Assembly: GCA_000934665.2 (NCBI GenBank) | Contig: JYFJ02002896.1 | Span: forward strand, 1-49,226 | Length of the DNA stretch: 49,226 bases | Direction of reading: 5' to 3' | From: Catajapyx aquilonaris | Lineage: Eukaryota | Part shown: positions 1 through 41,207 of the stretch, piece by piece | Layout: each line of letters begins with the position of its first letter | Position numbering within the stretch: the first letter of the stretch is position 1 | Program-made: the position numbers and the translations under genes | Notes under the pieces: model-generated | What the model saw: the letters and a program-made list of their open reading frames with translations, nothing else | The model's database searches: none | What the model was told of the DNA's origin: nothing

Positions 1-636
1 GAAATTGCATTTCGCGGGGTAGGTTACCTTTCCTGTGAAATACCATCATTTCAGTTTTATTTAGATTGATACTTAATCCTTTAACATCTAAATAATTTGC
101 TAATCTATCCAAGGCTCTTTGAAGATAAATTTGTTTATCAGCCAAAAGCACTAAATCATCCGCAAATTGTAAGCAGTGCAGGTCATTCGTATTTGGGCCA
201 AAATGTACTCCAGGGACCTCATTGTTGTCCCAGAGTTCAGCTATATCCGCTAAAAATAAATTGAATAATATAGGTGATAGTCTTTCGCCCTGTAGCACTC
301 CTCTAGTTATTCTGATTTTTGGTCCGTTGTCAATTTCTCATTATTGTGGCCGTCCCATAGATCGCACGAATCAGCTGTAGAAATCTTCCTCCCAAACCCA
401 AGCTGGTAAGTTTGCGGAATAATTTATCATGAGATATGTTGTCAAATGCCTTGGTTAGGTCGATGAAGGCTGTGTAGAGTTTACCTTTCGGTTTGACCGT
501 GTACTTCTGGATTAAAATATTTAGTGTGAATAAATGGTCCATTGTGCTTCTACCAGGGCGAAAACCTGCTTGGAATTCCGGCAGAATATTCCAATCTCTT
601 ACCCATTTCCTTAATCTATCGTCCATCATAGCCATG
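1..636 (-). mobile_element. Non-LTR retrotransposon (LINE) reverse transcriptase fragment, 5'-truncated and frameshifted, running off the window start
   Basis: The minus strand reads DDRLRKW..ILPEFQAGFRPGRSTMDHLFTL..AFIDLTKAFDNISHDKL. After a frameshift near 330 it continues RGVLQGERLSPILFNLFLADI..CLQFADDLVLLA..GLSINLNKTEMMVF. These are the QxGFR, DxxKAFD, GVxQG..LSP and [Y/F]ADD motifs of LINE RT domains. Confidence 0.95.
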
Positions 637-638
637 AC

Positions 639-2668
639 ATGGAGATCAACATGGATGTACTGAAGCTCAACCCTGGGGTATTCTCGATGAAAGTGAAGGT
701 GCTGCGAGGCAAAGACATCCCGCAACCCCTAAGAAGCTTCGCCCAAATGGATCTGAGTCCCGTCCTGTGCCAAAGTCTGAAGCAACATAAGATGAAAGTG
801 CCAACCTCCATTCAGAGCCATGTGATTCCCACTTTGATCCAAGGCCGGGATCTCATGTTGTGTGCTCCGAGAGGATTAGGAAAGAGCATGGCCTACTTGC
901 TCCCCATTCTGAACAGCACCTTTGACGTTATGGAGAGGACTCAGCCAGCGACGAAGATCAGTCCGACAGTCCTGGTGTTGTCCCCAACTAGGGAGGAGGC
1001 AACTCGGATATACTACAAAATCATGAAGTGGACGTACTACTCGCAAATGAAGACAGTCCTCTTGTGTGGCGGGGTTTACAACTTTCATAAGGCCAGGAAG
1101 TTGGAGGGAGGTGGTCACATCATTGTGGCCACTCCAGGTAGACTCATCTACTTCATTGAAAAGGAGAAGATCAGCTTCCAGCAGATCAAATGCCTCATTA
1201 CAGTTGATGCGAGCATGCTCCAACATGCAATGTCCACCGTAGAGATCAATGATAAGATCCTGCAGCACAGCTCCATGCCGCCCAAGGTAAAGATAATTTC
1301 CGCTTGTTGGTGGACGTCAATGACTGTTACCAAGCTGTTACCTATTTACAGAGCCAGCGCTTAAATGTGCTTCTAGCGACCACAATTCCTGACGAGAATA
1401 TCCAAAGCACATTCCTGCAGGACGACTTCGTTTCTCTCAGCATTGGTGGTGGCGCCAACGTGATTCAAACATTCTACCAGGTACGTAACGCAACTATTGG
1501 AAGTACTCTTGGAGGCAAAAATGCAGTAACAATATTTCTACTGGGTTTTTTCATTAGCTGAAGTGTACTGAGAAGAAGAACAAACTGCTCCAGATCCTGA
1601 GAGAGAAGAAAAAGACGGACCATACTATCATTCTGGTAGGATCAAAGTGCGCTGCAGATGCCCTGCCCACGATGCTGCTCCAGAATGGATTTTGCACGTT
1701 TGGGATACATTCAGACTCCGACAAGACCTCAGTCAATTGTGCTGTTCGCATGTTCGTCAACGGAAGGCAGCCCATCCTCGTTACCACGTCCTTTATCCTC
1801 AGCTTTTGTGAGTCCTAGCATAAGCAGTCACGTACTTCATGCATGTTAATGTAAGGAATGGGTTGTGCTTATTTGGTGATTTTTCTACTATCTTTGAAGG
1901 ACTTACATGGAAAGAAAAAGTGAGTCGATGCATACTCTCATTTCAAGTCTGGACTGGCAGCTTTGTTACAATTTATTTGCTGACTTGCACAGTAATAATA
2001 ATAATAATAGTAATAATAATAGTAGTTTATTAACCTCCTTTTAGGTAAACCCCATAACAGGAGGGGGAAGCGTTTACAAAGTAATCTCAGCGTGTTTCAA
2101 TAATCTTGTGGCTTGTACAAAGTATGAATATAGCTGATACAGGATGTGGGGGGGTGGGTCTTGTAACAATGCATACACTTTGTCCGGGGGGACTCTAGGC
2201 CAGTCATTGAGGTGTGTTTGTCGACTTGCACAGTAATGACAATGTCAGTCCAAACTTTAACATATCAGAGTATGGTCCAATGTGTTCAAATGAAAAATGT
2301 ACAAGTCATGCTTATTATTGTTTCGTTGTAGACCTGAAGGAGGTGGCTCCTGTCCACATCATAAATTTTGACATGCCAAGAAACATAGAGGAGTACCTGA
2401 AACGCCTTGGACTCACCAGGTGCCTGAGCACCACTGTTGGCGAAGCCATAAGTTTTGTCGAATCCCCAAGGGATGACCACCTCATCTACCCCTTGCTCCG
2501 CCTCCTTAAAGATGTGAGTGGGTCTCTCGTGTTCATACCAGAAGTGTGTTCATGCGTTTTCTTGTGCAGGAGGGAGATGACATCCCGGATTTCCTGATTG
2601 AGCTGGCCAAACAGGGTGGATCGTCTGGGCCAAACATACACCAAATGTCTTTCTGCCCAAGTTCATGA
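639..2668 (+). CDS. Divergent Vasa/DDX4-DDX3-like DEAD-box RNA helicase homolog with degenerate catalytic motifs (~435 aa; 5' end possibly cut by the LINE)
   Basis: Exons 639-1286, 1352-1480, 1558-1807, 2332-2513, 2570-2668, all GT-AG with a continuous frame (1308 nt). Retained: Q motif (F..MDL..PTSIQ), GRDLMLCAPRGLGKS (motif I), LSPTRE (Ia), GG doublet, IIVATPGRL (Ib), IINFDMPRNIEEY, IPDFL. Segments such as SMPPK/SQR, VIQTFYQ, GIHSD and PILVTT are colinear with Vasa/PL10 proteins. Confidence 0.85.
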
Positions 2669-2816
2669 TCTGAAGAGGGTCGATGGAGCTTTCTGTGGAA
2701 ATTGACAATTTTACTTTGAGACAAACAGTTTTCATGCCAAAACATGCCGTTAGCTTTGCTGACAGCTTCCTTTCCTGCACAGACAAAGGGAATAGGCGAG
2801 AAATAGGCGTAGATAA

Positions 2817-3515
2817 CCGCGGTTCCCCATAACGCGCGTAATGGGCCGAATGTAAAGTCCATTTTTGCCATTTTTCAGGAGAGCAGTTTGAAAGTTTCAA
2901 ATAATGTTTGACGTACCTTTCGTTGACATTGGAGTCTCGGTAATTTTTCTGTGGTATCACTACTATTGTAAGTTAATGATTGTAATGTAAATATGGAGTA
3001 TCTAGTGCCTACAATGCAGGAGAAAAAAATAATTACCGCCTTGGACTTCTGGCCTGTAGAAATTTTAATTTTAATTTTTTAACCACTTAAGTGAGGAAAT
3101 ACAGGGAAATAATATCTCCTAAATTAATTTTAGTCCCTTAATTATGCCTGAATGTGATGACAATAATTCTAAATTGATTTTTTTAAAGGCCTTTTTTGGA
3201 CTTATCAACATCTAGCCCGAAATTTCTCTTCAGTGCTAAGAGTATCCCGAAAAGGGGACTTGTAATCATCTGGCTGGGATAAAACATTTTTCTATGAAAA
3301 TATGCCGGATAGAGGCCTAGAATTTGCCCTTATCTCAAAAACCGTCAAAAATGGACTTAGCAACTTCTGGTTCTAGCTTCTTCAATTTGCATATTCGAAC
3401 TGTGTCAGTGAGGAATTCCCTCGCATCTTGCACAGTCATTGGTTCTCCCGAGTGGCGCATCATTTAATAGCGTTCAAGATTTCAAGTGGACATTACGCAG
3501 TGATGAAACGATACA
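2817..3515. mobile_element. Degenerate non-autonomous TIR DNA-transposon remnant (possibly Sola-like)
   Basis: The left end CCATAACGCGCGTAATG partly pairs with GGACATTACGC near 3488-3498, and the interior is AT-rich and non-coding. Boundaries are approximate and the superfamily call is from memory only. Confidence 0.35.
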
Positions 3516-4124
3516 TAAAATTGCCAGAAAAACACCTAAAACCCAATAAAACACGTGTGGGGTTGGTTTAAAAAAAAACGGGTTTTTTTCAACGTTTTCT
3601 TCCAACCCTGACAGGTGCCTGACAGGTTGTAAAACAGGTTGTGAACACGCCTGACCTCTGACGGATTTTCACCTGAAAATGGGGCCCAAGAAAGCAGCGT
3701 CCGGAATACCGCGGCATACTATGTAATTCTAGGTACCGGCTTGCCAAAGAGTAATAAAAGCCCTAATTTTTTTAAAAATAACCCACCACCGACAATTTAC
3801 CCAATGTGATTTACCTGTATATGAAACACACGCATGTGTTAGTATGGCAAAATAATAGTTACATTGTAGAGGACTGTAATATATAATAGCTGTTAATATT
3901 AGCTTGTTTGATAGATGTGGTGCACATTTAAGACACTTCTTTCGCAATTTGTCGATTTATCATGGAGAATGAGCGCAAAATGGTCACACAGAGCCCATGA
4001 AACACACAAGACACTTCAATAGGATGTGCGAAGGTTGTTTGAAAGCATCAATCAGGCTAAAAAATATTAATAGCTAATTTAAATTTCTATCTATATCGAG
4101 CGTAGCTGCTATATTGGCATACTA

Positions 4125-10400: not shown

Positions 10401-13400
10401 TTACGCAAACAACATAGGAAAGCAACTTGCACATATCCTACGAGGATTGAAAGAAGCTTTCGAATGATATATATAATATGATTTTTTGGATCATCTGCCT
10501 AGGAGTTGTTTCGAATCAAACACAGGGCTCACCGGATTAGGGAGGAAATATCTTGGACTGCTGGGAGCGCTCCCAGCCGGTAAGAGTGGGTCCGGACCTT
10601 CCTAGCAGCTAGGAGCGCTCCCACCACCTGGGAGGGGTTGGTGCAATGAAATCAGTTCCTAGGAGCGCCCCCACCTCCTAGGAACGGTTTGTGTAACCGG
10701 CCCTAAGGGTGGATGCTATCTTGCCTTTTGGAAAATAGATGGTGTTTTTTTTCACTGCCTTATGAGGTGACTAAAGTTTTTACCATTAGGGCTACATCAT
10801 ACAAATTCCATTAGTGTAAGAGTGACTCTTTGCAAATTTTTGAAGAACAGGTATTTTCTTTTAAAGGGACCATGCAACATTCATGACCAGGGACATGGTG
10901 CGTATATTTTTGGACATATCTACTCATTTACAGCCCCAAGTGCCGTCACAATTACGGCAAAGGAAGCGCTCCAGCAAAATATTGGTGTTACTGTGGGCAG
11001 GTCTCCGATCCAGTTACAGACCCATGGATTATCCCCCACTCTTGCGGACAAGTTTGCAGCCGGTTTTTGCAACCTGCTTGTGGACACATTTGCATGATCC
11101 TATGTCATCCAGGTATGAGCCAGTACAAGTATGTTGCCAATGTACATTGACAGTGTATGACTTGTTTTTTCAGGACCATGTCCCCCATGTCCTAAGACCG
11201 TGCCACGTTCATGTCTATGTGGAAAGGATACACCAACAATTGAGCGCTGCTCTGCATCACTTCGGTGTTGTGGACGGCCCTGTGGAAAGGTGCTCAAGTG
11301 TGGACATCACACCTGCATTGAGACATGCCATGGTGGGGATTGTCCTCCTTGTCCAAAGCAGAGCTCCCAACCATGCCAATGTCAACAAGATGTTAAGAAG
11401 CGGCCCTGTGCTGATCCAGTGTGGAAGTGTGGAAGGGTGAGATTTATTTCTTCCTGCTGCCCATTATACACTAGCAGATTATTTTGTTCTGCCTTTTTAT
11501 CGCTGTGCTTATTGAATAGTTTAGAGCTTGACCTCTGTGTTACCCACACTGCACTGCAGTGAAAAATATCAGTTTGGAGCAGCATATTCATTGTTAGAAT
11601 TGGTTAACTATCTGGCAACTAACTTCTTGTTGATGTTTAAGAAGCTTGGTGGCACACATTTTAAAAATCTGAGAAGTTAAACCATGATTGAGGGACTAGC
11701 TGACACTCAAATGAACTGGGAGATAGGTTGTAGAACTGGGCATAAGACAGCTCAGAATGCCCAAAGTATTAAATTTAATAAATAACTTTGCCTAAATTTT
11801 ATTAACCAATTTGATGCTTGAGGATACACTGAAAATGGCCCTGAAACTGGATGTGACGGTGCTTCAACCTGCCTTTTGTGAGATTTTTTCCTGTCCATTT
11901 GTACTAACAGACCCATTAAGCACTGAATAGCTGATGTAAGGATCCAAAAATTACTTTGTACTATGTAACACTCTATTTTATCTTAGGCCCGTATTCATAA
12001 TGGAATTCGAACGCGGGGTCGGGGTTGAACCCAGGGTTGAGGCGGAGTTGACCCCGGGTTCGTATTCATAATGGCTTTGAAACCCCGCGATCCGGGGTTG
12101 AGTCGGGCGAGGAGTTGACCCCGGTCCTCGACCAGGGTTCAGTTCTGAACTCGGGGTTGAGGTCGATTGCAAATGGCGGAAGGGGTCGAAATTCAAGCCG
12201 TTCTGAAGCGGCTAGACCTCCGACGCGTGTGTCTGAGGGACCGGGAGAACCCGATGGAGGTGTACGACGACGCGACGCGTCCCTCCGGCAACGACACCGC
12301 CTGCGGAAAGACTGCGTGTTGAACCTGCTCGAAATAATCGCGGCAGACCTCGTTCTTCCTCTGTAGACAAGCGGGCCATTTCAGGGCCACTGATAAATTG
12401 ACATCAGTCATGCAACGACAGTGATTTTATTGGGTGGGCTACATATACAGGGAGTCATCCCAAGTTCAAGTGACGATTTAACGGTTATAAATAGCAGTGA
12501 TTTTGTGCTATTCATGTAGCAGCTACGTCTGAACTATTACCTCTTCGGCGTCATCGAAAATATTAGCTGCCAATAGCAGCATACATGTAATGAATCTGCT
12601 GGAACCACATGCCACATGCGGCACCAATGCCAATCCGGCAGTCCGCAAAGAAGGCTGCCACTCCCGCGCCACAGGGCACTGTATTTTTTCCAGGTCAACC
12701 AGACAGGATTCATTACATGCTTGATTACATGTATGCTGCTATTGGCAGCTAATATTTTCGATGAAGCTGATGTAGCTGCTACATGAATGGTGCAAATAAC
12801 TGCTATTTGTAACTGTTAATCGTCACTCGAACTTGTGACGCCCTGTAGCTAGTAGGCTACATAAGTATTCTGATGTATGTACACCTTCTACAATTTTTGT
12901 AGGAAAAGAATGCGTCTCGTACCACCCCGCCATGAAGTACAAAATAATGGTCACTGTTGCTCCTCACCCAAAATCTTACCTCAACCAGCCCCCTGAGTTA
13001 ATTATAGCTTATTCGGTACAATAGATGCTGGTCAGCCCTTGCTATTTGGTCCAATAGTCAGCTCATTTACTGCAGAAGTTGGGTGACAATAATGGCTAGT
13101 GATGGGTCTGAACTTGAGATCGAAAGTGGCCAAGTCCACTGCAGAAATTATGCACTTTAATGTCATTGGGTATTAATATTGCACATTTGCGTATTATGTA
13201 GCAGACGAGCTATTATGCGGCAACGTAAAAATTATGGTCGTACAAGAGGTTAACGTAAACGCACCCGATTAAATCCTTAGCTTTAGCTATTTAGCAAAGG
13301 CGAATTTTTTAGTTAGCTTATTAGCTGTTAGAGAAGTTAATTTTTCGGATAGCTGTGCCCACCTCTGTTTTGTTAGTAAGTTAGGGTGGAATTTTTGTCG

Positions 13401-16320
13401 TACTACTAGTTACTTCTAACTTATTGCAGTACCAGTGTAGTGCAACACTGCAAATGTACTGCTAAGTTAGCAGTAACTCGTAGTACGACGAAAATTCCAC
13501 CGTTCGAAATTAAATAGTTAGTCACCAGTTATTTTCACTCATTTGCCAAGCACAGGGCCGTTTCGCGACCCGTCCGCGTGAGAGTGCTAGCGCCGCGTCC
13601 GATACGGTACCGTATTTTGTAGTGTGACGTCACTATATGGACGCCTGTTTCCAAGCCTGGTAAGCCCTGGGGTTGGAACGCGGAGTCGACTCAACCCCGC
13701 GGATGTTCGACATTATGCATACGGATCGGACTCAACCCCGGGGTTAACCCCAACCCGCTCTCAACCCGGGGTTACTCAACCCCGGGTTGAGAATGTCCAT
13801 TATGAATACGGGCCTTAGTGTTAGCTGATTGATTTACAAAGCACTGCAATCCCTACCTTCTAGGTCAGGGAATTGGATTTATAGTATCATATGCTGATTT
13901 TCTCTGGTCTGAGTTCATGTTAATAGGGTTTTACTCTACATGAAAGCCTTTAGTCAGACATGATGTAGCTCCCAGTCAGAAAATTACATGCTTTTGTTGT
14001 CACATTGCACCTTTAGAGCCACTGTCATAAATTAAGGTTAAAATTCACCAATAATGTTTGCTGCAGGTCTGTGACAAGTACCTGTGCTGCGGTTACCACA
14101 CTTGCGAAGTAGTGTGTCATTCAGGGGACTGTGGCGAGTGTTCCCTTAATCTTCCTCGGTCCTGTCCATGTGGGAAAACCAAGCAGACTCTGCCTTGCAT
14201 TGAAAAAGTAAAGCCTTGTGGTGATACGTGTGGAAAAAATTTGTCATGTGGATTGCACAAGTGCATGGAGAGATGCCATTATGGGCCTTGTGGACAGGTA
14301 AGTTGTTTATGAGCTACATTAATAGCATATCAAAAATAATGGTTCTTTTCAGTGTCTCCAAGTAGGTGAGAGGCGATGTCGCTGTGGCACACATAAGAAA
14401 TCTGTTTCATGTTTGAAAGAATATTTGTGTGAGTCCAAATGCAAGAAGATGAGGGATTGTGGTCGACACCCTTGCAACAAACGGGTATGATCATAGTTGG
14501 TGGTTTTTTGGAACTCACTGAAATGTAGTTTACTTACAGTGCTGTGCTGGGGAGTGTCCTCCATGTGAACAGGAGTGTCGTCGAAGTCTAAGATGTAAGA
14601 ATCACAAGTGCACTGCTCGTTGCCACCCAGGGCAATGTTTTCCTTGTGATAGCATGGTGGACATGAAATGTCGTTGTGGAGCAACAAAAGTGACAGTACC
14701 ATGTGGGAGAGAAAAGAAAATGCGACCACCTGCTTGCGAGCTGAATTGCAGGTCAGGTTCGTTTCAATGGACACTGTTCATTGAAGGTGCTGTTGGTATC
14801 AGGTTTGATATTTCTTACAGGGTTCCTCCAACATGCCATCATGAGAAACGGGAGGCTCATAAGTGCCACTTTGGTCCCTGCCCACCTTGTAGGCAAGCTT
14901 GTGGAAAAGTGCTGCATTGTGATCACACATGCCCTAAGCCTTGCCATTCCCAGGTCAAAGTGAAATTTTCAGAAAACCGAAAGCTAGAAGGACCATGGGA
15001 TAGGTTGCATACTTACTATGAGATTAAAAATCTGCCATGTCCACCATGCCTGGTGCGTAACAAGTGATATTCTTATGCAGGCTCATTATGCCTGAAATTA
15101 ATTTATTCGCCTATTTTGGGAAGCCCTGTATGAAAATGTTTTTCTACATATCCATATTGCAGGTAAAAGTGCCAGTTACTTGTTTTGGCAAACACGAAAC
15201 AGTTGACACACCATGTTGTGAGTGTCGTCCAACATCATGTTCACAGCCATGTGGACGTATGTTGGCATGCGGCAGTCATAAGTGTGAGAAGCCTTGCCAC
15301 ATCCCGTCAGAATCTTTGGATTATGAAGATAAGTTTGACGCAGCAGGTTCAGTGTTGGTGAGTGTCTGTTTGTAAAAGTTATTGAACTTGTGTCATATTA
15401 AACAATATTCCAGGCGGGACCAAATTGCGAATATTGTGAAAAGCAGTGCACAAAGCGAAAGAAAAACACCTGTCAACATGGATGCCCTTCGAAATGTCAT
15501 TTGGGTCCATGTCCACCATGCAAACGTTACATCCGCATTCGCTGTTACTGTGGAGTCCATGAACTCCATAAGCCTTGTTCTGAGATGACAAATAGTGATG
15601 GGACTGAAAATCTGCAAGCACGTGTCTGTGGAGGCACATGCATGAAAGAGGTATGTATACAGATTGCTGTAACAAGGAAGAACTGCTGCTTACAGAAATA
15701 AAACTCCCCAACAGTGGGTCTTCCAGGCTCTGACAATGCTGAGAGCTATATCATACACAACTTTGTGTACTGGTGTGTGGTAATTTGCATCTTGATGTTG
15801 GATTTCTTTTCCAGAGATCTTGTGGACACAATTGCAAATTGACATGCCATTCTGGGTCTTGCGATGAGCCTTCAAACAAGTGTAAGTTTAACACCACATT
15901 ATTTTGTGCTTGTAAGAGAACCAAGAAGACTGTTTTGTGTTGGGAACAAGATGCAAAAGAACCAAAGTGCAACAAAGTGTGTGAAAAGTTTCAAGCTGAA
16001 GAGGAACAGGTAATATTTTACTATCATATTCATGTGTGTAGGTGCTTCTTACAAGAGCACCTTCAAGAAAATTCCATTTATCCTCCCTTTAGAGGAAACG
16101 CGAGATTGCAGAAAAGCTTCAACAGGAAGCTGTCGAGAAGGAGAAGGCTGAATTAGAGGAGTTCATGCGCAAGATGTCACGAGCCGGGCGGAAAAAGCCG
16201 AAGAAGGCGTCTTTTGAAGAAGAGAACAACAACAGTAGATGGTCTAAGGTTGCACTCTATGCAGGCATTATGTTAACACTGGTTGCACTGGCAATTGCAG
16301 TGCATATAGCGTGGAAGTAG
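4401..16320 (+). CDS. NFXL1: NF-X1-type zinc finger protein NFXL1 (RING-like finger, multiple NF-X1 Zn fingers, coiled coil, C-terminal TM helix; ~966 aa)
   Basis: Exons 4401-4926, 7127-7263, 7538-7671, 10934-11112, 11174-11436, 14067-14297, 14353-14484, 14540-14751, 14821-15052, 15163-15357, 15414-15650, 15815-16009, 16093-16320 join in frame (2901 nt). The protein has an RG-rich start, [61 protein letters not shown], repeated CGxHxCxxxCHxGxCxx[14 protein letters not shown] and a hydrophobic tail. This order matches NFXL1, and there is no R3H domain as in NFX1. Confidence 0.95.
4476..4868 (+). repeat. 189-bp (63-aa) in-frame tandem repeat, two full copies plus the start of a third, in NFXL1 coding exon 1
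   Basis: Units start at 4476 ([16 protein letters not shown]..), 4665 ([16 protein letters not shown]..) and 4854 (TNPDD). Both full units end with [21 protein letters not shown]. Confidence 0.9.
7967..8303. mobile_element. Inverted-repeat (MITE-like) element in an NFXL1 intron; related copy at ~10115-10320
   Basis: CATAATTAAGTTAATTGCACACCTC..AGCCAGAAATGTGCGTGATAAAATTACAT (7967-8071) is the reverse complement of 8199-8303. The right arm plus its flank recurs, diverged, at ~10115-10320. Confidence 0.75.
8834..9597. mobile_element. Foldback-like palindromic element with internal ~150-bp subrepeats
   Basis: Termini are TAGTCCGGGCCCTAAGCG and CGCTTAGGGCCCGGACTA. The subunit GGTCA(C/G)GAGT(A/T)ATGCGG occurs forward at ~8955, 9107, 9254 and inverted at ~9301, 9449. 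The arms are near mirror images. Confidence 0.85.
9692..10703. mobile_element. PIF/Harbinger-type non-autonomous element
   Basis: TIRs are GGGCCGGTTGCACGAACCGTTCCTAG and CTAGGAACGGTTTGTGTAACCGGCCC, flanked by TAA on both sides (9689-9691, 10704-10706), the typical Harbinger TSD. Confidence 0.85.
12448..12845. mobile_element. Tc1/mariner-type MITE nested in the Harbinger element
   Basis: TA-CAGGG...CCCTG-TA with long imperfect inverted arms (e.g. CATCGAAAATATTAGCTGCCAATAGCAGCATACATGTAAT versus its reverse complement at ~12724-12763). Confidence 0.85.
13385..13501. repeat. Short palindromic MITE-like hairpin
   Basis: GGTGGAATTTTTGTCGTACTAC..AGTTACT pairs with AGTAACT..GTAGTACGACGAAAATTCCACC. 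Confidence 0.75.
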
Positions 16321-25506: not shown

Positions 25507-28411
25507 GGTCTTAAATCATGCTCTGTGAGGTACAAGCATTACTCTCAGGTATGAAAATTAATGCAATAATTTTGCTTCAGTTAGCTGCTAAGTCATGAAA
25601 ACAAGTTCTGAATTGCTTGATGCGAGGTTTTGTTTGTCAAATTATATATGAATGGTGTTTAAAGGCTCATTCCCAAATCTGCGATTCAACAGTGGCAGCA
25701 AGCAATTTTTCCAATTTGGAGGTTTAAAAAATCCATAACTGCAAGGTAAAGTGTTGCTAGTCTGACTGCATTTGTCTCAAAGAGTCAAGCAAGTATCACA
25801 TTACATTGTCACTCATTGTAGTTACAAATTTGTTTGAAACTCCCAGTCAGCAAAAAGCTCGCTTTTGGTACCAAGTTGTGGATATGTGAATGGACCTATG
25901 CCAATAAATTCATAATGAAACTTCTCATGGCCATATCCATATTAATGCAGTTTGACAGTAGCACAAGTTTGTTGATAAATCTCATTTGGTAGTGCAAACA
26001 CTGCATCTTGCTGTATAAGAGAACCTGTACATCAGATCGAGATCGTACACAAAGCATTTACATAATATATCAGCTTCAAGGCATCAGACCTGTTGCGATC
26101 ATGCTCAAATAAATGCTATTGAACATAGCTCACATGAACATTTATTTTACTAATTTGCCATTAACTTTAGTTTTGTCAAGTTATTTCAACCACTGGATGC
26201 CATGAGACATGCAAAAACACAACACATGTTGGAAAATACTGTGTAACAAAAACTTAAAAAGTTTAAGACCTAGGACTTTTCACAGAAGTCAAAAGAACTT
26301 CATAAATATTCTTGCAGTAAAAATTGCACCACCATTAGGAAAACCATAATCTGCCTCCTCCAATTAAACCAGGGATGTTCAACTTTGTTGGCAAGTGGGC
26401 TATACTGAGTGTGCTTAGCCACTGCTCCCCAGTTTTAAATACACAAATGACAGATACACAAAAATGACATAATAATGGAACCAAGCTGAATGGCCCTCGC
26501 ATATTGTAGAACACCAAAACATTCTCCAAATCTGTTCACAGCCACATGCGGCCCGCCATTATATGATGAGCATCTCTAGTTTAATGGTGTTAGCTTCAAC
26601 ATCTACTTCTAGATACAATTATGCTGTGTGCTAGCAACTTTCACAGAGCACAAAAAATATCAGCAACTTTTGTACGAAAACAACATCAGAGGCATACTCT
26701 ATGACAACAATTGATCTCATCCATTTGTACCCAAGGGAAGTGTGTAAAAGTATAATTATTATGCCGTCATAATATACTTAAGCATATAAAAGGGATGATC
26801 ATATGGACTGGCAGTTACAACCTAGTGGTTGACCCCACTTCTCCCCCCAACATCATCCTCCATGCTCCCTCCAGGCCCCCCTCTTCCCCCTACTTAAGAA
26901 AGAAGTTCCTCAACAGCTACGGGAGCTTTGCAGGACATTCATATTATAGTCATACAGAAGGGGGTTCAATTACCTCCTAGAAGCTGCCCAGAACAAGGAG
27001 GAGGTATGGTTGGAGAGTGTATGACATCACACTTGTAAGGCTATCTGGTCTGCAATGTCTGTGGGTGAGTAAATGAATGCATCCTTCCAACTCTAAACAT
27101 TCCATGGCCAGCTGCCAAAATCATTTTCGTCTTCCACTGTTTCAGTGTAACTACTGTGTGATGAAAATGCTTTCCTTAAAATAATATCATGCTGTTTGAA
27201 TAGTATGAACAGTTATAATTCAATTTCCAATCTATAGTTTGCATAATTTGATGTGGTACCCCTGCATAAGCAGTAAAACCATGATTAGACAAACGCTGAT
27301 GAGACGAAACCCTTATCTAGGGAATTCAATGCTTTGTTGGTTGGATACGACAAACTTAGGATATTTCATAAGTTAGTACAAAGTTACTTGAGGGTCCTGC
27401 CTGCTAGTATGAAAAACAGATGGGGAATAAGCCCATGCAGAAATGCAATTTTCATACCCTGCCACTTTCAATATGGGGAGGGAGGAATGGACTGTTATCA
27501 GTTTGCATATCCTGTGCATCAAAATGGTTGACAAGTGTGAAAGTGGCCCAGGTATATAATCCTCTGGGGAATGCAAGGAGGAGGGTGGGCGAGAAGAGCC
27601 TGTGGAGGAAAATCCAATGGCATACAGCCAAGAGGAAAGCAAAGTCAAATGGAAGTATGGGCCCACTAAGATTGTTGCGATGACATTTGCCAATTATGTA
27701 AATGCTGATGACTACGTAGAAATGTATGACAGATGAACCAACAACTGCCACTGCTGGGGGTAAGGCAGATCAGTAAGAAGGCATAATGTTGCCAAAAAAT
27801 AGGCATGATTGATTTCAAACTTAACGTCCGAAAAATTATAAGTGCTCATGCAGGCAGCCAGACAGACCAACGGAGCCATTCTATAAGTTGTTGTTTTTAA
27901 AAGAGAAGAGGTCTAAAAGATGGGGACGATTTTGCATTTTATTTCAATGCAAAATTGTCTATATCTTTTTGAGTGATATAGTACATTTCATGGTGGTGGA
28001 TGAAATTATTTTCAGATGGGGCACACACCACTCTCATGGGTATCTTCTGGCCTTTGATCCCAATGCAACTAAACTCTTAGCCACTGCCATTCCTGGTTTA
28101 GAAACCTTGTAAGTACCTTATAACTACTAAAACAATCACGGTGTTTGATTTGGGAGTTTGTAGTAAAGGTTATTTACCCCGAGATGGTGCACGAGGGAAG
28201 TGGCACCACAGTATCCCTATGCCCTAGGTGGGGGCTTGGGGAACTCCCAGCCAAATCTGGTAACAAGGGTAATATTGTGCTGAAGGAGTCTTACAAAACA
28301 ACATAATACTCTTAGCCATGTTATGTTGGTTCTACTGGAAATTGGTAACCATCAAGTTGGACCTGCCAGACCATAATTTCTGATGAGGAAACAAACTGCT
28401 ATGAACACCAA

Positions 28412-32135
<3,724 letters not shown>

Positions 32136-40662: not shown

Positions 40663-41207
40663 ATGTCAAAAAAGATATGTAGACTTGAAGAGATAGCGTC
40701 TAGGACGCCTATGGTTCTACGCTCCCAATGTAGCCTTAACCCTGGCCAAAATATGATGAAGAAAGAGACTAGAAACAAAGGAACCACGTACGATATTAGA
40801 ACATTCACTGCAAGCAATGCAGCAACAGGAGACGCCGACACTAAAGAGGACAAAGAAATCAAAATACACATACCTGGTAAGGAAAATGCTTTGAGATTTT
40901 ACTGAATAATGGATGGTCCTGTCATTTGCATCCACTGCTTACTGTGGGCTGTACCACACAAAGTTGTTTGATTGTCGATCGAGGATTGATTATTGTTACC
41001 AGTAATACTTTTTATTCTACAGTAGAGTGGAACAACACCAACTCCCATTTACGGGCCCTATGCAAGGTGTGCCAGGTGAACGATCTGGGTGTCGCTTTTC
41101 GTCCATGTGGTCATGTCCTGTGTTGCCAGAAATGCGCCATGGGATTTGTGAAGTGTCCCATCTGCGGCAAGGACATCCGTACAAGGGGACAAATATTTGT
41201 CCCCTAG
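40663..41207 (+). CDS. Small protein with a C-terminal C3HC4 RING finger of IAP/MDM2 type (putative E3 ligase; 5' exons uncertain)
   Basis: Exons 40656/40663-40876 (CCTG|GTAAGG) and 41023-41207 (TTCTACAG|) join in phase 1. The RING is CKVC..NDLGVAFRPCGHVLCCQKCAMGFVKCPICGKDIRTRGQIFVP-stop, placed at the extreme C-terminus as in IAPs. AATAAA occurs at 42052. Confidence 0.75.

Follow-up and report, generated by a model that had tools for sequence, protein, structure and literature searches.

Results

A Vasa-like gene at the edge of the window

Positions 1 to 49,226 of contig JYFJ02002896.1 of Catajapyx aquilonaris (assembly GCA_000934665.2), read on the forward strand, make up the stretch of DNA analysed here; this whole stretch of 49,226 nucleotides is referred to as the window. 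Close to its first base lies a gene of five exons that encodes a protein with the two RecA domains (RecA1 and RecA2) of the DEAD-box helicases, and immediately upstream of it is a fragment of a long interspersed nuclear element (LINE) on the opposite strand (Table 1). From its relationships, the state of its motifs and its pattern of divergence, we regard the gene as a candidate Vasa-derived pseudohelicase, either alive or only recently dead.

Three-frame translation of bases 1-3600 gave five open segments which, joined at GT..AG boundaries with pyrimidine-rich acceptors, form a coding sequence (CDS) of 1308 nt (639-2668, + strand) comprising 435 codons and a TGA stop, with no internal stop codon. 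Exon 1 matches the Pfam DEAD family (E 3.7e-24, profile positions 1-123 of 167) and exon 3, taken alone, matches Helicase_C (E 2.9e-5; its score of 24.7 bits lies just above the 23.5-bit cut-off), while exons 2, 4 and 5, searched singly against Pfam, gave no match. The DEAD domain of RecA1 is followed in the spliced product by the Helicase_C domain of RecA2, the order expected, and the product is colinear with DDX3/DDX4-type proteins from residues ~18/24 to 412/425, with 31-36% identity and E ~1e-69. When the product is aligned with nine relatives, none of the four exon junctions lacks a residue and junction 3 alone has gained one, implying that the introns are real and are not devices that hide stops or other damage. 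An artefact, in which exons were stitched together by eye over a decayed copy, might be suspected from the fact that the splice sites were picked without transcript data, but four GT-AG junctions with pyrimidine tracts that restore a colinear alignment make it the least credible of the explanations we considered. No second copy of the gene was found in the window, where the sole other tblastn match covers 30 residues (E 2.7). Intron 3, the only long intron, contains an AAT/AGT-rich low-complexity run near 1992-2030.

Table 1. Features of the analysed window of contig JYFJ02002896.1, in window coordinates
Feature	Position	Strand	Remarks
LINE reverse-transcriptase fragment	2..632	-	5'-truncated, frame-shifted; Pfam RVT_1 in two open reading frames (ORFs) of different frames
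Exon 1	639..1286	+	216 codons; putative ATG at 639; RecA1 domain
Q motif	738-740 and 801-815	+	kept (F34; PTSIQ with Q59)
Motif I	864-887	+	APRGLGKS (family AQTGSGKT)
Motif Ia	984-1001	+	PTREEA; PTRE kept
GG motif	1068-1073	+	kept
Motif Ib	1131-1145	+	TPGRL, kept
Motif II	1203-1214	+	eroded, VDAS for DEAD
Intron 1	1287..1351	+	65 nt, GT..AG, phase 0
Exon 2	1352..1480	+	43 codons; eroded motif III
Motif III	1376-1384	+	eroded, ATT for SAT
Intron 2	1481..1557	+	77 nt, GT..AG, phase 0
Exon 3	1558..1807	+	first part of RecA2
Equivalent of Vasa F504	1660-1662	+	A
Equivalent of Vasa F508	1672-1674	+	M
QxxR stretch	1705-1734	+	eroded, IHSDSDKTSV (family IHGD..Q..R)
Motif V	1783-1807	+	eroded; start, in exon 3
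Intron 3	1808..2331	+	524 nt, GT..AG, phase 1
Exon 4	2332..2513	+	remainder of RecA2; NFDMP..IEEY stretch kept
Motif VI	2400-2423	+	eroded, KRLGLTRC for HRIGRTGR
Intron 4	2514..2569	+	56 nt, GT..AG, phase 0
Exon 5	2570..2668	+	DIPDFL at 2582-2599; TGA at 2666-2668
NF-X1-type zinc finger ORFs	11161-11559 and 14055-14309	+	Pfam PF01422, E 7e-6 and 1e-10
CTDSPL2-like NIF/FCP1-type phosphatase	28335-29811	-	three exons; Pfam NIF, E 1.6e-19, 3.4e-15 and 4.5e-7
C3HC4 RING finger ORF	40881-41204	+	PF13920, E 1.3e-10; GC content at third codon positions (GC3) 0.60 over 43 codons

Relationship to Vasa

When exon 1 is compared with the PDB using phmmer, the highest score is to Vasa (2db3, 115 bits), followed by Ded1 (112 bits), Bombyx Vasa (106), planarian VLGB (103) and DDX3X (~100); the next family, DDX46, scores 83 bits. 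The best solved match for exon 3 is also a Vasa structure, the C-terminal domain in 5nt7_B (phmmer E 2e-7), and exon 4 matches DDX41 (E 2.4e-8) and the Vasa C-terminal domain (E 9e-7).

In a quick tree built from 77 rows, the model belongs to a set of 26 that is entirely metazoan, with a Shimodaira-Hasegawa-like approximate likelihood ratio test (SH-aLRT) value of 95. In a careful maximum likelihood tree of 36 rows, from which a divergent ostracod protein discussed below (P0241) was omitted and for which the bootstrap had not fully settled, the model and 14 Vasa-type rows stand together on one side of a branch with support of 100/98. These Vasa-type rows include Lithobates DDX4, Linepithema vasa, Brachionus DDX4 and Oopsacas vasa A, and the other group consists of fungal, amoebozoan and Naegleria DDX3/Ded1-type proteins. 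The Vasa-type and DDX3-type groups were defined after the first tree and the names had been seen, and the placement is subject to the usual caveat for a long branch. Names were obtained for 20 of the best hits, among them a Lytechinus protein with CCHC knuckles. The approximately unbiased test cannot separate a position inside the 14 sampled Vasa rows from one as their sister (log likelihood difference 1.18, p 0.468). We conclude from these comparisons that the predicted protein belongs to, or adjoins, the metazoan Vasa/DDX4 set. It shares its core architecture and near-equal RecA1 scores with the PL10/DDX3/Ded1/Belle proteins, but differs from them in grouping with the metazoan Vasa-type set and in the loss of its catalytic motifs.

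Erosion of the ATPase motifs

Motif states were read from the alignment with the nine relatives and from a family alignment of 80 proteins, these relatives having been drawn from an exhaustive search of 1.84 billion representatives. In motif I, G79, G81 and K82 are kept and T83 is conservatively replaced by S, whereas the invariant T78 has become R and the near-invariant S80 has become L. HMMER and MAFFT agree on the register in which motif II reads VDAS. The D, E and D of DEAD are invariant in 80/80 relatives; in the model an Asp is found at the position of the glutamate.

Across the QxxR stretch and motifs V and VI, the changes R318 to V, R342 to F, G343 to Y, D345 to K, H366 to K and R370 to L each fall at a site that is invariant in 80/80 relatives, and R373, an arginine in 79/80, has become C. 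At 14 of the inspected sites where all 80 relatives are invariant, the model alone deviates. Motif V, ARGLD in the family, has become LSFYL through a change that includes a one-residue insertion spanning the exon 3/4 junction. Intron 3 splits the codon that in the relatives specifies the Asp of ARGLD; this codon is now made up of the last base of exon 3 and AC from exon 4, and since that last base is T it encodes Tyr. A hidden exon within intron 3 that might restore motif V was looked for by reading all three frames, and none was found. At the C-terminus, the DIPDFL of exon 5 corresponds in the alignment to VPEWL/VPEFL in the nine DDX3/DDX4-type relatives and is followed by a tail of 22 residues that contains one acidic residue, no Trp and no acidic run.

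A preliminary description of this gene had proposed a Vasa/PL10-like protein in which five exons with canonical splice sites give a stop-free frame of ~435 residues over both RecA domains, with the Q motif, GLGKS, PTRE, GG and TPGRL kept, motifs II, III, QxxR, V and VI lost, and the acidic, Trp-containing C-terminus of Vasa absent. The gene model, the Pfam matches and the colinear alignment bear out the frame, and the kept motifs are recovered in both the nine- and the 80-protein alignments. The losses are likewise confirmed, the quoted ITVDASML being correct but its register differing by one residue, as is the absence of the acidic tail, and the structure scores and trees agree in placing the model in or next to Vasa/DDX4.

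DEAD-box proteins cannot hydrolyse ATP without the DEAD acids, SAT and the arginines of motif VI, and the closed state that clamps RNA needs the RecA2 contacts (motifs IV, QxxR and V) together with motif VI acting on the gamma-phosphate. We infer that ATP hydrolysis by the predicted protein would be impossible. An unorthodox helicase or ATPase, still active through substitute residues, might be imagined from the GK[ST] of the P-loop, the Q motif and the Asp at the DEAD glutamate position. The first Asp of DEAD, SAT and the residues of motifs V and VI, however, are replaced non-equivalently at positions invariant in 80/80 relatives, and we know of no DEAD-box ATPase that tolerates such a combination of motifs; we consider an active enzyme very improbable.

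Could the protein nevertheless close on ATP and RNA without hydrolysis, as a clamp or dominant-negative form of Vasa that holds PIWI-interacting RNA (piRNA) intermediates in the manner of the DQAD mutants? In favour of this, RecA1 has kept its RNA-binding motifs Ia, GG and Ib, along with the Q motif and the P-loop Lys, and DQAD Vasa is described, in a review citing Xiol et al. 2014, as locked closed on RNA and as disturbing both nuage and piRNA silencing. The DQAD form is presented in that review as a single point mutation, whereas here the R of QxxR, the R-G-D of motif V and the H/R/R of motif VI are all replaced, including the motif VI arginines on which closure depends along with the RecA2 contacts, and in motif I an invariant Thr has become R and a near-invariant Ser has become L.

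The surface by which Vasa is recruited has also changed. Jeske et al. 2017 show that eLOTUS binding, as well as localisation to nuage and germ plasm, requires two residues of helix alpha2 in the C-terminal domain: F504, which does not vary among Vasa proteins, and residue 508, which is aromatic in all of them. In the alignment to 5nt7_B, which is the crystal chain of Jeske et al., F504 is replaced by Ala and F508 by Met, with a Pro between them, implying that the known eLOTUS recruitment surface is not kept in the predicted protein. With the RecA2 contacts to RNA and ATP and the LOTUS-binding aromatics gone, an ATP-dependent RNA clamp appears unlikely, and we give little credence to the dominant-negative form that would hold piRNA intermediates. 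The preliminary description had suggested an RNA clamp like ATPase-dead Vasa, or a scaffold; the former is weakened by the loss of QxxR, V and VI in addition to DEAD, and a scaffold acting through the known partner surface of Vasa is not supported, given the Ala and Met that replace its two aromatics.

Divergence and signs of selection

The terminal branch of the model is 2.9-4.4 substitutions/site long, compared with medians of 0.62-0.63 in the two trees, and in the careful tree, at 4.4 against 0.63, it is ~7x the median. Of the 96 near-invariant sites of the family, defined as those on which at least 90% of the 80 relatives agree, 51 are kept in the model and 45 are changed, whereas the relatives themselves deviate at a median of 2 of these sites and a maximum of 23. 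The suggestion that only RecA2 has decayed finds no statistical support, since the two domains do not differ in their retention of conserved sites (29/51 in RecA1, 22/45 in RecA2; Fisher p 0.54).

Despite this divergence, the reading frame does not look like the product of neutral decay. Simulations of neutral point mutation that start from the CDS, with a simple mutation model (kappa 2) and with the ancestral codons unknown, give a mean of 9 stops by the time 47% of residues have changed, and 0/400 runs are then stop-free; at 20% residue change, 4/400 runs are stop-free. At least five indels are specific to the model, judged against the length-conserved parts of the family, and every one is in frame; by simple arithmetic, the chance that five neutral indels would all keep the frame is ~(1/3)^5.

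The replacements themselves are conservative. Hydrophobic residues are still found at 67/78 sites where the consensus is hydrophobic, and among the hydrophobic sites that have changed, 27/38 stay hydrophobic, against an expected share of 0.51 +/- 0.085 under a replacement model in which stops are forbidden and change is otherwise neutral; 4/500 neutral runs reach the observed share. Over 73 changed sites the mean BLOSUM62 score is -0.22, compared with -0.73 +/- 0.18 expected, a value reached in 0/500 runs.

Codon composition gives a fourth signal. GC3 is 0.639 (278/435) over the CDS and lies between 0.53 and 0.67 in every one of the five exons, while the gene's own introns have a GC content of 0.388 (280/722; Fisher p 1e-16) and the downstream flank one of 0.393. 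In the neighbouring CTDSPL2-like exons GC3 is 0.40-0.43.

All four signals (stops, indels, replacements and GC3) point the same way, and argue that the changes did not accumulate by neutral decay. The preliminary description had taken heavy divergence without stops as a sign of selection rather than of a long-dead pseudogene, and here the simulations, the in-frame indels, the conservative replacements and GC3 speak with it. On these signals, the frame is one that has been selected through most of its divergence, until recently at least, or else is a recent copy of such a gene. By extrapolation from the simulations, an unselected period longer than ~0.08 substitutions/site would very probably have yielded a stop.

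Junction with a LINE fragment

The LINE fragment is represented by two ORFs on the reverse strand, one (333-728) matching positions 24-106 of the RVT_1 profile (E 2.2e-13) and the other (2-337) matching positions 114-193 (E 5.3e-15). Its similarity to human L1 ORF2p residues 546-638 (phmmer E 8e-6) begins at ORF residue 34, which corresponds to base 629. The translation beyond base 629 bears a faint resemblance to the first reverse transcriptase (RT) motif of the LINE pattern; we treat this as a lead only, by which the LINE would possibly reach to ~base 680. The edge of the LINE is thus not fixed between bases 632 and 680.

A hidden Markov model (HMM) built from the 80 relatives, with their N-terminal flank included, aligns the model only from base 684 (residue 16) and leaves its own first 32 positions unmatched. 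No helicase ancestry can be demonstrated for the ATG at 639 or for the 15 codons with which the frame begins. An N-terminal equivalence suggested by MAFFT, of EINMD with GINFD, was dropped, because the HMM aligns nothing before base 684 and the equivalence would need a 7-residue insertion. With homology starting at base 684, beside the LINE, and with a start of no demonstrable helicase ancestry, the gene appears at the least to have been rearranged at its 5' end. The Gly-rich, zinc-knuckle region that precedes the core in Vasa-type proteins is absent within the window, near the edge of which the gene adjoins the LINE fragment. The word 'intact', used in the preliminary description, is consequently doubtful, given a start at or inside the LINE junction and no Vasa/PL10 N-terminal region in the window.

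Is the gene still under selection, then, or has it recently died? The most serious alternative to a living gene is that a young LINE insertion decapitated a divergent but once functional Vasa-like paralogue, taking away its promoter and N-terminal exons too recently for stops to have accumulated. A number of observations weigh against a living gene and most of them fit this alternative. The gene abuts or overlaps the LINE fragment, RT homology extending to base 632, and perhaps 680, and helicase homology beginning at 684, so that the fragment ends within 7 to 50 nt of the helicase homology, and the ATG at 639 may itself be derived from the LINE. The RT fragment retains long open frames (244 stop-free codons with one frame shift), so that the insertion looks young. 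An out-of-frame ATG lies 6 nt upstream of the putative start, at 633; there is no N-terminal Gly-rich/zinc-knuckle region in the window, and the only AATAAA 3' of the gene is 877 nt past the stop codon. Retention at the near-invariant sites (51/96, 53%) is barely above that at sites conserved in 50-90% of relatives (61/139, 44%), and the old constraints of the family look almost erased, as in a pseudogene. The absence of stops and the GC3 signal are compatible with a recent death, at roughly 0.08 substitutions/site or less, and the neutral simulations have the simplicity noted above.

No close relative or orthologue could be placed on the other side of the balance. The exhaustive search returned 27,122 hits at E<=0.001, of which only 4 reach E<=1e-30 and none exceeds 42% identity. 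Word-index searches for 'longer' proteins (579 hits from 959 candidates, best identity 38%) and for 'near' ones (30 hits from 117 candidates, best identity 39%) likewise found no close relative, and a search of the ESM Atlas returned generic DEAD-domain clusters only. The proteins of the source genome itself are not in the searched collection, as is apparent from the neighbouring CTDSPL2-like exon, which has no identical hit there, and the lack of an orthologue may reflect sampling.

Against a recent death stand other features of the locus. An AG at 630-631, following a pyrimidine tract, is a possible acceptor for upstream exons beyond the window edge, and the ATG at 639 has G at both -3 and +4, so that there is room for either upstream exons or a new start. 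In its ORF, splice sites, in-frame indels, conservative replacements and GC3, the locus still has the character of a coding gene. A recently dead pseudogene would, moreover, still need a long history of selection as a motif-eroded protein, and differs from the explanation that we favour only in what it says of the present. We give a recent death a substantial chance, though a smaller one than the explanation that we favour.

Other features of the window

The two NF-X1-type ORFs probably belong to one large NFX1-like gene on the + strand. The CTDSPL2-like exon finds its best identities, of 81-83%, with Logan-derived entries and with bivalve, mite and insect proteins.

Discussion

We suggest, with about even confidence, that the gene encodes a lineage-specific, extremely fast-evolved Vasa paralogue that has lost its ATPase residues, has been kept as a coding frame and would be non-catalytic if expressed. 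A paralogue of the germline helicase Vasa, from the DDX4 clade or its immediate sister, would here have been reduced to little beyond the two-RecA core. The residues for hydrolysis (motifs II, III and VI) are gone, along with those that close RecA2 on RNA and ATP (QxxR, V and VI), while the reading frame has stayed open, spliceable and codon-biased and continues to specify a hydrophobic core. The parts retained are this hydrophobic core, the nucleotide- and RNA-binding elements of RecA1 and the C-terminal helix region. If it is still expressed, such a pseudohelicase would presumably serve as a non-catalytic binding module, most plausibly by way of the better-kept face of RecA1 (the Q motif, the P-loop Lys and motifs Ia, GG and Ib) or of newly acquired protein contacts. 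Neither clamping of RNA driven by ATP nor docking at the canonical eLOTUS surface of Vasa would be expected of it.

How far has this protein moved from Vasa itself? Besides the matches and grouping described above, it has kept the domain order and two stretches found in the aligned DDX3/DDX4-type relatives, NFDMP..I.EY and, at the C-terminus, L..LL...(V/I)P(D/E)(W/F)L. It differs from Vasa/DDX4 in its eroded DEAD, SAT, QxxR, ARGLD and HRIGRTGR motifs, in the A and M at the positions of F504 and F508, and in the length of its branch. A Gly-rich N-terminus and a negatively charged C-terminus are given as Vasa-defining features in a review; the model has no acidic/Trp tail, and its Gly-rich/zinc-knuckle N-terminus is not in the window.

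Pseudohelicases derived from the DEAD-box fold have been described elsewhere, though their recognition is recent, and two RecA domains with degenerate ATPase motifs are found in the model too. One such case is MUT-15 of C. elegans, reported to act as the scaffold of the CPUG complex in a small-RNA pathway; its DEAD reads NNAE, its Q motif is absent, it has no ATPase activity, and it retains the eLOTUS-binding surface of RecA2. The two proteins are alike in being DEAD-box-like with degenerate ATPase motifs. The pattern of loss is the opposite of that described for MUT-15, the model having kept the Q motif and lost the two aromatic LOTUS contacts. A second case is Utp25/Def, of the small-subunit (SSU) processome, which has a DEAD-box-like fold with dispensable helicase motifs and has been called a validated pseudohelicase. 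Utp25 is, however, described as ancient, conserved and essential across eukaryotes, whereas the model has no detectable orthologue and derives from the Vasa branch. In the literature searched, as judged by titles and the opening parts of abstracts, no pseudohelicase of the Vasa branch is described. The model is thus a candidate for a new member of the class of DEAD-box-derived pseudohelicases, and for an independent case from the Vasa branch.

One sampled protein may hint at a wider group. P0241, a Vasa-type RNA helicase of 605 residues from the ostracod Cyprideis torosa (UniRef A0A7R8WG40), is sister to the model in the tree of 77 rows with an SH-aLRT of 90, although the tree program flags the pairing as one in which long branches meet. 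No other protein among the 80 relatives shares the Pro that replaces the Gln of motif I, and P0241 also has Ser for the Gly of IHG. It deviates at 20/96 of the near-invariant sites, but keeps all its catalytic motifs, with DEAD, SAT, SRGLD and HRIGRTGR, and is 31.5% identical to the model over 419 residues. The shared Pro is a weak hint of a divergent, crustacean-type group of paralogues. The top-scoring representative in the exhaustive search, P0121 from Macrostomum lignano, is a predicted protein of 1780 residues with three DEAD-domain stretches, and may represent tandem Vasa-like genes fused by the gene model.

What might such a protein do in the animal? A more specific role, which we put forward as speculative and rather unlikely, would be that of a selected germline decoy or regulator of Vasa-dependent ribonucleoprotein or piRNA complexes, one that binds nucleotide or RNA through RecA1 without hydrolysis, closure or LOTUS docking. 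With such a role, the protein would be nature's equivalent of the engineered ATPase-dead alleles of Vasa, and no earlier pseudoenzyme from the Vasa branch would be known.

No germline marker is more widely used than Vasa, and its ATPase cycle has a central part in the dynamics of germ granules and in piRNA amplification. Should the gene prove to be freshly dead, it would represent ordinary turnover of paralogues beside a LINE insertion. If, on the other hand, it is expressed, it would reveal how much of the Vasa core, and which parts, can persist for a non-enzymatic role, and would provide a natural experiment on how an ATPase-dead Vasa-like protein acts in vivo.

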